Below, in pieces: positions 41,201-44,200 of a stretch of 64,000 bases of DNA. Position 1 is the stretch's first letter. Every line of letters starts with the position of its first letter. Origin of the DNA: a plasmid; the NCBI RefSeq assembly GCF_054482595.1, contig NZ_JBTHVH010000004.1, one strand, 5' to 3'. Made by a program: the position numbers.

Positions 41201-44200
41201 GCTGGCCGTACTCGTTCCAGCTTTCGACGCCGACCTTGAGCTGGTCGGCGACCAGCTTCAACAAGGGCGGGAACGGTAGTTCATCGACGCCCAGGATGAC
41301 GCCGGGAAAGCGCAGGTAACAGAGCTGCACCGCGAAGCCCAGCCGATTGGCTGGCCCGCGCCGCTGTCGGATGATCGAGAGGTCGGTATCGTTGAATGTG
41401 TAATGTCGGATCAGGTCGTCCTTGGAGTCCGGCAACGCCAGCAGGCTTTCCCGCTCGGCGGCGGACAGGATGGAACGACGTGGCATATTTACTGATCCGT
41501 TCTCAAGTATTGATACAGGGTTTCGCGACTGATTCCGAATTCACGAGCAAGCTTGGTCTTTTGCTCGCCAGCCTCGACACGTTGGCGCAGTTCGGCAATA
41601 CGCTCAGACGACAGGGATTTCTTCCTGCCACGGTAAGCCCCGCGTTGCTTGGCGAGCGCAATACCCTCGCGCTGACGCTCGCGGATCAGGGCGCGCTCGA
41701 ACTCGGCGAACGCGCCCATCACCGAGAGCATCAGGTTCGCCATCGGAGAGTCTTCGCCAGTAAAACTGAGGTGTTCCTTGACGAATTCGATATGCACGCC
41801 GCGTTGTGTCAGCGTTTGCACGATCCGGCGCAAATCATCGAGATTGCGCGCCAGGCGATCCATGCTATGCACCACCACGGTGTCGCCGGTGCGGGCGAAG
41901 CGGCACTGTTGCAAATAGTCGGTGGTGATAAACTTATCATCCCCTTTTGCTGATGGAGCTGCACATGAACCCATTCAAAGGCCGGCATTTTCAGCGTGAC
42001 ATCATTCTGTGGGCCGTACGCTGGTACTGCAAATACGGCATCAGTTACCGTGAGCTGCAGGAGATGCTGGCTGAACGCGGAGTGAATGTCGATCACTCCA
42101 CGATTTACCGCTGGGTTCAGCGTTATGCGCCTGAAATGGAAAAACGGCTGCGCTGGTACTGGCGTAACCCTTCCGATCTTTGCCCGTGGCACATGGATGA
42201 AACCTACGTGAAGGTCAATGGCCGCTGGGCGTATCTGTACCGGGCCGTCGACAGCCGGGGCCGCACTGTCGATTTTTATCTCTCCTCCCGTCGTAACAGC
42301 AAAGCTGCATACCGGTTTCTGGGTAAAATCCTCAACAACGTGAAGAAGTGGCAGATCCCGCGATTCATCAACACGGATAAAGCGCCCGCCTATGGTCGCG
42401 CGCTTGCTCTGCTCAAACGCGAAGGCCGGTGCCCGTCTGACGTTGAACACCGACAGATTAAGTACCGGAACAACGTGATTGAATGCGATCATGGCAAACT
42501 GAAACGGATAATCGGCGCCACGCTGGGATTTAAATCCATGAAGACGGCTTACGCCACCATCAAAGGTATTGAGGTGATGCGTGCACTACGCAAAGGCCAG
42601 GCCTCAGCATTTTATTATGGTGATCCCCTGGGCGAAATGCGCCTGGTAAGCAGAGTTTTTGAAATGTAAGGCCTTTGAATAAGACAAAAGGCTGCCTCAT
42701 CGCTAACTTTGCAACAGTGCCCACACCAGAACGTATTGAACAAATTTTGGAATTTTCCGAGGGTAGTAACCCAAGCGAAGCAATGAGTCTTAGAGCTGAC
42801 GAAGTTGCTGTACTGGCACGTATTGGAAAGGCAGTTATGTCGATTGCGCCTGTTTATCAGTGCGAGTTTTGCCACCATGACGCAACCGGGCAACTTCAGT
42901 GGCACTGGGAAGATGTGAACAAAGCTTTTTATGATAAATACGATCCAGACAGACGCGGAAGACGTCGAATCCTCTATACCGCCCCGCCGATGCCTTTAGT
43001 TTCGGCTGACCTGCTTAACATGGCTTCATCTGCTATTGAAGACTTGCTCACTAACAAAGACAGAAGTGGTGCGGGAATGTGGAATGACATTCCAGAACAG
43101 CTACGACGCGCAGCAGAACTGGTAATGGATAATAGCCGGGCCGCTGAAATAGAAGCGATGCTGATGCGTCTTTATGTAGAATGTGACACCGGTGAGCGCA
43201 GAGGCAACGGCAGTCAATCTGGCGTAGCAATGCCTTCGTGGCAAACCGTTGAAGAGGCACGTGTGTTGCTGGGGGTGAAATGATGCAGTTCTCGCCAGGG
43301 CAGTTTGTAATTCACAACAAGAAGCGCCTTGCGGAACGAAGGTAGACGTACTGACTGAGGTTCACTCCCCTCTCGACTGGTGGCGTAATACCGCCAGGTT
43401 TTGATTCATATATGCCGTCCGTTAACGCATTTATATCTGTCATACCTAATTTATCCTGATTCTTTTTTACACAAAGTAAAAGCATCACTTAATGCGATAT
43501 GTGGATGCCGATAGTTTCAGGCTAATGTTATAAGTTTTGCAATCGTTGCCAGTTTGGATACCACAGCAATGTCAGATGTAATTCCAAAAAGAAAGATTTA
43601 CGTCCTGAACGCACAATAAGGTTTGTCGAAAGGCAAATTATAGATTTGTAATTTCGAGCACCATATGGAGAAGTTTTTTATACTTTTACGAACATAGTGA
43701 CCTTTAGGAAAAGCTTAAAATAACACCAAACCTAAAGGGGAATAAGAATGAAACATCTCGCTTTTATTACTGCTGTAGCCGGACTCGGTATGTCTGTTCA
43801 GGCCCCAGCTCAGATATATGAATCGGCCTTTAAGGACACGAACGGTATTGAGATCCACGCCCCGTCTTCTCGTCTTATGCTTAATCCGGCATCACCGGTA
43901 ACTTTGACACTTATTTCAGGTCTTGATCGTTTCGTTAATGTCAAAGTCACGAAAGACACTGGAACTGTCATTCTTAATACTACGACTACACGGACGGGTG
44001 TATCAGACCGACTAACAGCTGCTGACGGTAGTGAGTTCTACGGCAAAAAAGTAACTTTGCCTGCTTTGGGTGAAGGCAAATTTGTCGTTCAGATAAACGT
44101 GTTAGATCTCAATCAGAAGCCTGTAGCGACCTATAACTATAACTGGCTAATTGATGTCACCCCTCCAGCGGCAAATGCTCTTACCGCTAATACTGGTTCT

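Follow-up and report, generated by a model that had tools for sequence, protein, structure and literature searches.

In a survey of deletions that the insertion sequence IS26 makes next to itself in cis, He et al. (2015, mBio; PMC4471558) inferred a loss of 74 kb beside an IS26 in one plasmid. For early-region phage proteins of the Ea22 kind, an NMR structure of the C-terminal domain of lambda Ea22 has been reported (PMC10834534), and Ea22 of lambda and Stx phage is pro-lysogenic (PMC7093339), which does not imply that the plasmid protein discussed below is an ortholog of Ea22. Here, we describe a junction at which, as read from the sequence, the end of an IS26 copy beheads a small phage-like gene of the IncHI2 plasmid backbone. 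The junction lies in a 64,000-nucleotide stretch of a plasmid (contig NZ_JBTHVH010000004.1), hereafter called the window, and has the following features on its two sides.

41489-41901, minus strand: remnant of a TnAs3/Tn21-type resolvase gene (tnpR), its 5′ end cut by the left end of IS26
41902-42721, plus strand: complete IS26 (820 bp) with exact 14-bp inverted repeats (GGCACTGTTGCAAA) at 41902-41915 and 42708-42721
42722-43283, plus strand: 5′-truncated IncHI2 backbone gene for a hypothetical protein (WP_001572415.1 / WP_000491822.1), 100% identical to nucleotides 51-612 of the annotated coding sequence (CDS)
43377-43397, plus strand: terminator-like hairpin followed by a T run (7-bp stem with 5 GC pairs, tail GTTTTGATTC), a consensus match only
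43748-46168, plus strand: intact next backbone gene; its 806-aa product (WP_000681217.1) has a signal peptide and Ig-like domains
48166-49254, minus strand: repHI2, the IncHI2 replication initiator (362-aa open reading frame [ORF]), mapping exactly onto repHI2 of pSTM6-275 (L001 11445-12533)

All of the DNA from position 1 to 42721 belongs to a resistance island, and all of it from 42722 to 64000 is IncHI2 backbone. The earlier note had placed a truncated backbone gene where the island ends on the right, and this placement was borne out: the IS26/gene junction marks the island's right boundary. The window covers 64 kb of the replicon, and the left edge of the island lies beyond it. The description of the backbone as AT rich holds relative to the adjacent TnAs3 DNA (62 to 64% GC) and IS26 (52%) but not in absolute terms, as the gene remnant has a GC content of 49.3% and the backbone at 43284-64000 one of 43.6%.

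The element at the junction carries a single tnpA gene for the 234-aa Tnp26 and is nearly identical to the reference IS26. It matches two other copies in the window (17190-18009 and 23825-24644, both in the inverted orientation relative to this one) at 820 of 820 bp and the IS26 of pSTM6-275 at 99.8%, and in relatives the same element carries an IS26 transposase annotation. On the plus strand, tnpA (ORF 41947/41965-42669; ATG at 41965, stop at 42667-42669) reads toward the truncated gene. The element is not bordered by an 8-bp target site duplication, its flanks being GGCGAAGC on the left and CACACCAG on the right; since this is expected after IS26-mediated deletion or recombination, it is no argument against IS26 identity. 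The left flank, including the 8 bp adjoining the element (GGCGAAGC), is the tnpR remnant, where a minus-strand ORF for a resolvase-like protein (41489-41974) starts inside IS26.

To the right of IS26, the DNA is at least 99% identical in 1,098 PLSDB plasmids, and positions 42722-50500 are 100% identical to pSTM6-275 (PLSDB type IncHI2A). Both repHI2, about 5 kb from the junction, and syntenic flanking genes place this side in the IncHI2 backbone. An Rfam scan of both strands of 42500-43900 gave no match. Minus-strand ORFs at 42615-42905, 43051-43260, and 43101-43244 are mechanical only.

From position 42722, the remnant begins with 1 nucleotide of a split codon and continues for 186 sense codons up to a stop codon (43281-43283), in agreement with the roughly 187 codons that had been noted to run out of IS26 into the backbone; the peptide CEFCHHDATGQ reported for it is present in the translation. 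The earlier note had proposed a database search for the intact homolog and had reasoned that the absence of one would speak against a real gene remnant. The search recovered full-length homologs in IncHI2 plasmids (e.g., pSTM6-275, pM160133_p1, and pKC25), all with 100% nucleotide identity to the remnant and annotated as a hypothetical protein of 203 aa (WP_001572415.1) or 195 aa (WP_000491822.1). Hundreds of IncHI2 plasmids carry an annotated CDS to which the remnant is 100% identical.

Compared with these intact copies, the locus is the same from nucleotide 51 to the stop codon and beyond, with the same downstream neighbors, whereas the first 50 nucleotides (26 or 11 by the alternative starts) and everything upstream are replaced by the IS26 end. 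Position 42722 corresponds to nucleotide 51 of the 612-nucleotide annotation, to nucleotide 27 of the 588-nucleotide annotation, and to nucleotide 12 if translation starts at Met14 of the longer one. The missing 5′ end reads …ATGACCACTTTCACACCAG / ...ATGACCACTTT. It had been stated that the 5′ part of the gene is lost; the start codon and the 5′ end are indeed absent, but the coding part lost is very short (4 to 17 codons), and the remnant constitutes the 3′ 92 to 98% of a conserved IncHI2 gene. The N termini of homologs favor Met14 as the start, which would give a protein of 190 aa. In at least 10 divergent homologs, residue 1 aligns with residue 14 of the long annotation, whose residues 1 to 13 have no counterpart in such homologs; the two ATGs upstream of Met14 are preceded by weak Shine-Dalgarno-like motifs.

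In the intact locus, the gene is preceded by three co-oriented genes, encoding a 254-aa hypothetical protein, a DNA methyltransferase-like protein, and an 87-aa phage-like protein. None of these three neighbors was found anywhere in the 64-kb window. The terminator-like hairpin lies 94 nucleotides past the stop codon of the remnant and likely represents the end of the native four-gene transcription unit.

The reading frame of the remnant is open into IS26, which creates a hybrid ORF.

42675-43283, plus strand: hybrid ORF of 202 aa, consisting of a TTG start plus 15 whole IS26 codons, a junction-spanning Pro codon, and 186 backbone codons

The TTG lies 5 nucleotides past the tnpA stop codon and lacks a properly spaced Shine-Dalgarno sequence. 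The gene has lost its start codon, its ribosome-binding site, and its native promoter, and having none of these, the remnant is most likely an inactive pseudogene. It would be transcribed only by read-through from the same-strand IS26 tnpA, and any translation would have to begin at the poor TTG inside IS26 or at an internal ATG (42783). A hybrid promoter using an IS26 −35 box is unsupported, as a promoter scan revealed no sigma-70-like site spanning the IS26/gene junction.

We think it unlikely that the remnant is still functional, that is, cotranscribed with tnpA and translated by reinitiation at TTG 42675 into a fusion of 202 aa in which 186 of the 190 to 203 native residues survive. The open frame from IS26 into the gene and the same-strand tnpA ending 52 bp short of the IS end would permit this, and only 4 to 17 N-terminal residues are replaced; residues 1 to 13 of the long annotation lack a counterpart in divergent homologs. 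Such a protein would, however, depend on a TTG start whose sole Shine-Dalgarno-like motif (AAGG, 3 nucleotides upstream) is too close, at a junction where no promoter-like site was found, and it would lack the conserved N-terminal start M-[ST]-T-[IF]-T-x-E, which is destroyed. The 100% identity to the intact gene could likewise be taken as a sign of function, but this absence of decay shows only that the event is recent. For the probably inactive remnant, annotation is a practical concern: gene callers are likely to label 42675-43283 an intact "hypothetical protein," and pSTM6-275 already has an analogous annotated CDS that starts inside IS26 (L001 4036-4731, with the IS26 tnpA at 3355-4059). 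The 202-aa ORF should instead be marked as an IS26-truncated pseudogene.

To account for the junction, we compared the window with pKC25-20925_262kb, the closest relative of the island. Positions 38276-42721 correspond to pKC25 116000-120445 and positions 42722-64000 to pKC25 197511-218789, both on the plus strand, and the tnpR flank is identical within the former segment. The window is therefore colinear with pKC25 on both sides of the junction, without 77,065 bp located directly at the IS26 end. In pKC25, this interval contains IS903B-blaCTX-M-65, umuDC, trhH/traG, mobI, a MobH relaxase gene, traD, hok, relE/parE, and two DNA methyltransferase genes. This colinearity, with the island, IS26, and the 3′ end of the gene in that order, is what a deletion would be expected to leave; an inversion would give another layout. 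An IS end at a partial gene, together with a relative that holds the intervening DNA between flanks in the same orientation, is characteristic of an adjacent deletion. The window contains no copy of the missing 5′ end of the gene, and no direct or inverted copy of the 8-bp target adjoins any IS26 end in it.

We therefore regard IS26-mediated adjacent deletion as the probable origin of this decapitated IncHI2 gene, with good confidence on sequence grounds. The element may have reached the gene by replicative transposition within the same molecule (in cis), or an insertion may have come first, with recombination between two IS26 copies afterward. Measured on pKC25, 77,065 bp would have been lost, a figure that assumes a pKC25-like ancestor. 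The earlier suggestion that insertion of the island deleted or displaced backbone functions is supported by the comparison: the upstream genes are absent, there is no target duplication, and 77,065 bp are missing relative to pKC25, but the event looks like an IS26 adjacent deletion rather than an insertion of the island at this place. Neither PLSDB nor the complete E. coli genomes contained the exact IS26/gene junction; the 11 plasmids with seemingly full-coverage matches align in two pieces, their IS26 lying about 600 bp further upstream. Other IncHI2 plasmids have IS26 island edges a few hundred base pairs upstream of this site.

An improbable alternative is insertion and displacement without loss, in which IS26 first landed in the gene, generating an 8-bp duplication, after which the island grew in place by capture of translocatable units; the 5′ end and the backbone upstream of it would then lie intact beyond the window, where the island ends on the left. 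IS26 is known to build arrays beside an existing copy (reviewed in PMC7986276), and the island fills the window to its left end without reaching backbone, so that its left junction is outside the window. The comparison with pKC25 speaks against this scenario. The left 42.7 kb of the window is colinear with the pKC25 island (99.9 to 100% identity over the aligned pieces), which occupies another place in the backbone, flanked by the ter/hipA side and by the umuDC/Tra2 side, in the same orientation to the repHI2 region. With the same island at a different site in pKC25, one deletion explains the window, whereas independent rebuilding of the island at a new site does not. Furthermore, no plasmid in PLSDB or genome in the E. 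coli set has IS26 at this position.

Somewhat less probable still is an inversion or later reshuffling, by IS26 transposition in trans or by homologous recombination between inverted copies, after which the 5′ end would persist elsewhere beside another IS26. IS26 inversions are common (PMC4471558), and the window contains IS26 copies in both orientations. One such step, however, would put the new IS26 beside the inverted far end, whereas the actual left flank is the truncated TnAs3 tnpR also seen in pKC25, and the inverted 8-bp target (CTGGTGTG) adjoins no IS26 end in the window.

We investigated the intact protein for relatives and modules. It was not matched by any Pfam family at an E value of ≤1 (remnant) or ≤0.1 (full length), including PF13935 (Ead_Ea22), PF04448 (DUF551), and PF04447 (DUF550), or by any NCBIfam family. 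The PHROG matches were exclusively to families 60 and 660, both of unknown function. PADLOC models matched neither the ORF nor its 87-aa and 254-aa neighbors; solely the neighboring methyltransferase was matched, by MTase models. A sequence search of the PDB returned no chain at an E value of ≤0.01, with only chance-level matches (E ≥ 0.02). AlphaFold2 with a 50-sequence alignment produced a poor model (mean pLDDT, 64; pTM, 0.30) in which only residues 47 to 90 exceeded a pLDDT of 80, and a Foldseek search of the PDB with this weak model retrieved nothing at an E value of ≤0.001, the top matches being meaningless.

That the frame arose by chance and was propagated by annotation pipelines is effectively refuted by conservation at the protein level: although the lack of Pfam, NCBIfam, and PADLOC families and of a PDB relative and the poor AlphaFold model would suit such a reading, and the nearly identical IncHI2 copies are uninformative on selection, there are 121 protein homologs at an E value of ≤10⁻³, down to ∼32% identity and in different genera and genomic contexts, with module-level conservation, matching N termini, PHROG family matches, and annotated phage homologs (e.g., "EaA protein").

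The intact protein is a mosaic of four modules that also occur in accessory proteins from the early region of lambdoid and P22-like prophages, namely, EaA-like proteins, proteins with DUF551 or DUF550, and Ead/Ea22-like proteins, the last through their C-terminal tail. With DUF551-type proteins it shares the AASAIEDLL..KDRSGAGVW module and, at the N terminus, the M-[ST]-T-I-T-K-E helix region; the YQCEFCHHD..WHWEDVN module is shared with DUF551, DUF550, and PF13935 proteins. Its last ∼40 residues (EAML.RLY.ECDTGERRGNGSQSGVAMPSW..LLGVK) match the tail of Ead/Ea22-like proteins at ∼80% identity, a tail that lies outside, or beyond, the PF13935 match region in the homologs. Homologs such as P0010 and P0017 carry DUF551 (PF04448) C-terminal to the shared modules, a part that the IncHI2 protein lacks.

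The CEFCHHDATGQ segment does not appear to be a well-conserved metal site. Among 23 divergent proteins with the module, C64, H68, and H78 never change, but A, Q, Y, or L can replace H69. We downgraded a zinc finger reading of CEFCHHD because the second cysteine (C67) is a threonine in 4 of the 23. In the AlphaFold model, this segment forms a small sheet of three strands (pLDDT, 82 to 88).

The best match among sequenced phages is annotated as an "EaA protein" and adjoins EaD and DNA methylases. Unlike the phage EaA, Ead, and Ea22 proteins, the IncHI2 protein is encoded on a plasmid rather than a prophage. The module matches show that this "hypothetical" protein, widespread among IncHI2 plasmids, is built from modules of the prophage EaA/Ea22 region. 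The intact gene is kept in more than 1,000 IncHI2 plasmids, in a co-oriented four-gene unit with the DNA methyltransferase-like gene and the gene for the 87-aa PHROG-family protein; a Klebsiella phage shows the same association with methylases. Speculatively, and with low confidence, it may be a plasmid-domesticated phage early accessory module that possibly aids the establishment of a new IncHI2 plasmid, through antirestriction or counterdefense or through cross talk with resident lambdoid prophages, for which the precedent reported for lambda Ea22 would be an analogy. If so, the IS26 deletion is a natural knockout, and the unit is dispensable for plasmid maintenance.

If the 77-kb loss was a single deletion, the plasmid should no longer be self-transmissible. 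Should the comparison with pKC25 hold, the losses would include the coupling protein, the relaxase, and some of the mating apparatus, leaving a nonconjugative IncHI2 derivative, which matters for predictions of spread.

The junction closely resembles the adjacent deletions described by He et al. (PMC4471558). A complete IS26 abuts a partial gene without an 8-bp target duplication, a close relative holds the intervening DNA in the same orientation, and the sizes of the deletions are similar (77 versus 74 kb). The present case differs in that the deletion was deduced from a relative, pKC25, and not from an ancestor-descendant pair, and the same end product could also result from insertion followed by homologous or Tnp26-dependent recombination between IS26 copies. 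The finding adds to the routine cases in which IS26 has trimmed a plasmid.

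The inverted repeat at the right end of IS26, TTTGCAACAGTGCC, was read at 42708-42721 (sequence reading, 41500-44500), and a pattern search placed its partner at 41902-41915. The copy is complete (820 bp) and identical to two others in the window, and an open frame runs out of its right end:

41902-42721, IS26
42667-42669 (+), stop codon of IS26 tnpA
42722-43283 (+), backbone gene remnant, 186 sense codons, stop at 43281-43283
43377-43397, terminator-like hairpin
43748-46168 (+), gene for an 806-aa Ig-like-domain protein
48166-49254, repHI2

The remnant translation contains ...PVYQCEFCHHDATGQLQWHWEDVN..., and its coordinates and length agree with the 187 codons of the earlier note; the backbone described there as AT-rich is so in relative terms only (GC of 49.3% in the remnant and 43.6% to its right, versus 62-64% in the adjacent TnAs3). 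According to the ORF listing, the frame is also open backwards into IS26, giving a 202-aa ORF (42675-43283) with a TTG start inside the element. At its left end, this IS26 cuts short a TnAs3-type resolvase gene, yielding a second hybrid ORF (161 aa, 41489-41974, minus strand) that also starts inside IS26; this arrangement is identical in pKC25-20925_262kb (NZ_CP142404.1, IncHI2A; hereafter pKC25).

With megablast, 42722-44500 matched 1,099 PLSDB records, and for 1,098 the identity was ≥99%; these large plasmids come from Escherichia, Salmonella, Enterobacter and Klebsiella. In both records inspected, pSTM6-275 and pM160133_p1 (each typed IncHI2A), the match lies within an intact "hypothetical protein" coding sequence, followed by the gene for the 806-aa protein and then repHI2:

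pSTM6-275, WP_001572415.1, 612 nt, 203 aa
pM160133_p1, WP_000491822.1, 588 nt, 195 aa

A full-length homolog therefore exists, and truncation of a backbone gene by IS26, as first proposed from the sequence, is real. Genes for large Ig-like-domain proteins flank repHI2 on both sides (43748-46168, plus strand; 50362-52506, minus strand), and a third lies in the upstream stretch of relatives that the window lost. These are conserved IncHI2 backbone genes, and the N terminus of the 806-aa product resembles a signal peptide.

Position 42722 is nucleotide 51 in the 612-nt annotation. At its 5′ end, the intact gene has ATGGTAAGCACAACTGGAAAAAATATGTTTTCAAAGCCTATGACCACTTTC/ACACCAGAA..., and IS26 stands in place of all bases up to and including the first two (TT) of the Phe17 codon, TTC, a coding loss of 50 nt under the 203-aa annotation versus 26 nt under the 195-aa one. 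In alignment, the N termini of at least 10 divergent homologs coincide with Met14 (MTTFTPERIEQ versus MSTITKERIEQ), and residues 1 to 13 are essentially without counterpart. The true product therefore probably has 190 aa, which would reduce the loss to 11 nt (Met-Thr-Thr plus two Phe bases). Under any of these starts, the window has lost the initiation codon together with the ribosome-binding site and everything upstream of them.

The 8 bp on either side of this IS26 differ (GGCGAAGC versus CACACCAG), none of the other IS26 ends in the window adjoins CACACCAG or its complement, and the window does not contain the lost 5′ sequence; the junction is therefore not a simple insertion. To its left, 1-42721 is a multiresistance island carrying TnAs3 and several IS26 copies, with cmlA, floR, tet(A) and a class 1 integron among the annotated genes beneath its matches. 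Within it, an 819-bp element (35947-36765) shares the 14-bp terminal repeats of IS26; we rejected it as IS26 and regard it as a distinct IS6-family relative because identity is only ∼75%, most of the differences falling on the third base of a codon. A solitary IS26-type 14-bp repeat (GGCACTGTTGCAAA) at 26563-26576, directly after which IS26 identity ends, may be an IS6-family end remnant or the end of another IS6-family element.

The best match of the island is pKC25, at 99.9 to 100% identity. In pKC25, this right end of IS26 leads into IS903B-blaCTX-M-65 and, beyond that, umuDC/Tra2 backbone; intact and on the same strand, the ORF occupies 197461-198072. Two plus-strand BLAST matches meet at the junction:

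window 38276-42721, record 116000-120445
window 42722-64000, record 197511-218789

At the sequence level, these make the window equivalent to a pKC25-like plasmid without 120446-197510, a 77,065-bp interval beginning exactly at the IS26 end; with the upstream genes also absent from the window, the suggestion that backbone functions were deleted or displaced here is supported. The interval carries blaCTX-M-65, umuDC, trhH, a traG-like gene, mobI, a MobH relaxase gene, traD, hok, relE/parE, two DNA methyltransferase genes and many hypothetical genes. Small local differences from pKC25 surround an IS3-family element (window 52431-53879 versus record 207220-208669), where ∼118 bp of the window are unmatched, identity is only 98.3% over one stretch, and the match skips 118 bp on the pKC25 side; the backbone elsewhere is 99.98 to 100% identical.

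This comparison with the closest relative suggests that the junction is most probably one end of an IS26-mediated deletion of ∼77 kb; if so, the lost DNA would include transfer genes. IS26 could have deleted the adjacent DNA by intramolecular replicative transposition in cis, which gives such a layout according to He et al. (PMC4471558): the island, then IS26, then the 3′ remainder of the gene that was hit, with nothing altered to the left of the IS and no target duplication. The same product would result if IS26 inserted first and IS26-IS26 recombination came next. The window ends short of the island's left edge, which leaves some room for an identical island to have been assembled in situ elsewhere on the backbone, an unparsimonious and improbable course, and for inversion of a segment, which is less probable still, as it would leave different DNA left of IS26, whereas that flank is unchanged. 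The identical junction was not found in PLSDB or complete E. coli genomes.

IS26 island edges lie a few hundred base pairs upstream in other IncHI2 plasmids (Klebsiella oxytoca NZ_CP138769.1 and pSTM6-275), so that IS26 boundaries are found repeatedly in this part of the backbone, just upstream of repHI2, possibly because longer deletions would hit the replicon. Across several independent IncHI2 plasmids (these two and PLSDB hits H36-H46 of the junction search), IS26-bounded resistance segments end ∼0.3 to 2 kb upstream of this ORF.

The remnant is 100% identical to the intact gene, so the truncation is recent. No sigma-70-like promoter was found across the junction, and transcription could come only by read-through from tnpA. 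The in-frame TTG (42675) lies 5 nt past the tnpA stop with AAGG only 3 nt upstream, and the first in-frame ATG (42783) lacks a Shine-Dalgarno sequence. Most likely, the remnant is an inactive pseudogene. Gene callers will still annotate it as a ∼202-aa protein; the pSTM6-275 annotation has a comparable coding sequence starting inside IS26. No Rfam RNA family was found within 42500-43900.

Intact plasmids carry the gene at the end of a run of four closely spaced genes in one orientation (3967-6562 of L002, a stretch of one such plasmid), with the hairpin 3′ of the unit:

254-aa hypothetical protein
253-aa methyltransferase, matching DNA-MTase models
87-aa protein, matching phrog_11469
this ORF

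No part of the 42 kb upstream of the gene in pM160133_p1 was found anywhere in the window. The unit may have come from a phage and may serve as a cassette for establishment or anti-restriction.

The full-length protein matched no Pfam, NCBIfam or PADLOC model and nothing in a PDB sequence search; its PHROG matches were 60 and 660, neither of which has an assigned function. When 5.8 billion proteins were searched, 121 matched; besides IncHI2 orthologs and fragments, these are prophage proteins of enterobacteria (Enterobacter, Klebsiella, Citrobacter, Salmonella, E. coli and others) annotated as ead/Ea22-like (PF13935), as DUF551 (PF04448) or as DUF550 carriers (PF04447), or not annotated. Homolog alignment resolved a mosaic of four modules:

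N-terminal helical segment
cassette EPVYQCEFCHHD..GELQWHWEDVN..FYDQYD..RRG.RRILYTAPP, in 23 divergent proteins
AASAIEDLL..KDRSGAGVW.D.P..LRR, common to DUF551-type proteins
C-terminal tail EAML.RLY.ECDTGERRGNGSQSGVAMPSW.TVE.AR.LLGVK, ∼80% identical to the Ead/Ea22-like tail

In other homologs, the EPVYQCEFCHHD cassette is swapped for unrelated ones between the same EPV and LYTAPP anchors. The Cys/His-containing segment noted earlier is present and partially conserved: C64, H68 and H78 do not vary among the 23 proteins, 4 of which have Thr in place of C67, and H69 varies. The AlphaFold2 model has low confidence (pLDDT, 64; pTM, 0.30), the Cys/His cassette alone being confidently predicted, as a small three-stranded sheet; Foldseek returned nothing significant.

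Membership in PF13935 is unsupported because the shared tail lies outside the PF13935 match in Ead/Ea22-like proteins. The best match among sequenced phages is the "EaA protein" of Klebsiella phage 5 LV-2017 (37% identity over 86% of the query), whose gene adjoins EaD and DNA methylase genes; the "EaA" homolog is thus likewise beside DNA methylases (phage stretch L010). The only tested relatives, and these in name, are the Ea22 proteins of phage lambda and of Stx phages, which are reported to be pro-lysogenic (PMC7093339, PMC10834534). By these sequence relationships, the beheaded gene reads as a conserved, phage-derived IncHI2 backbone gene. The feature is an ordinary IS26 boundary decapitating such a gene; both are known sequences, and the mechanism is a textbook one.
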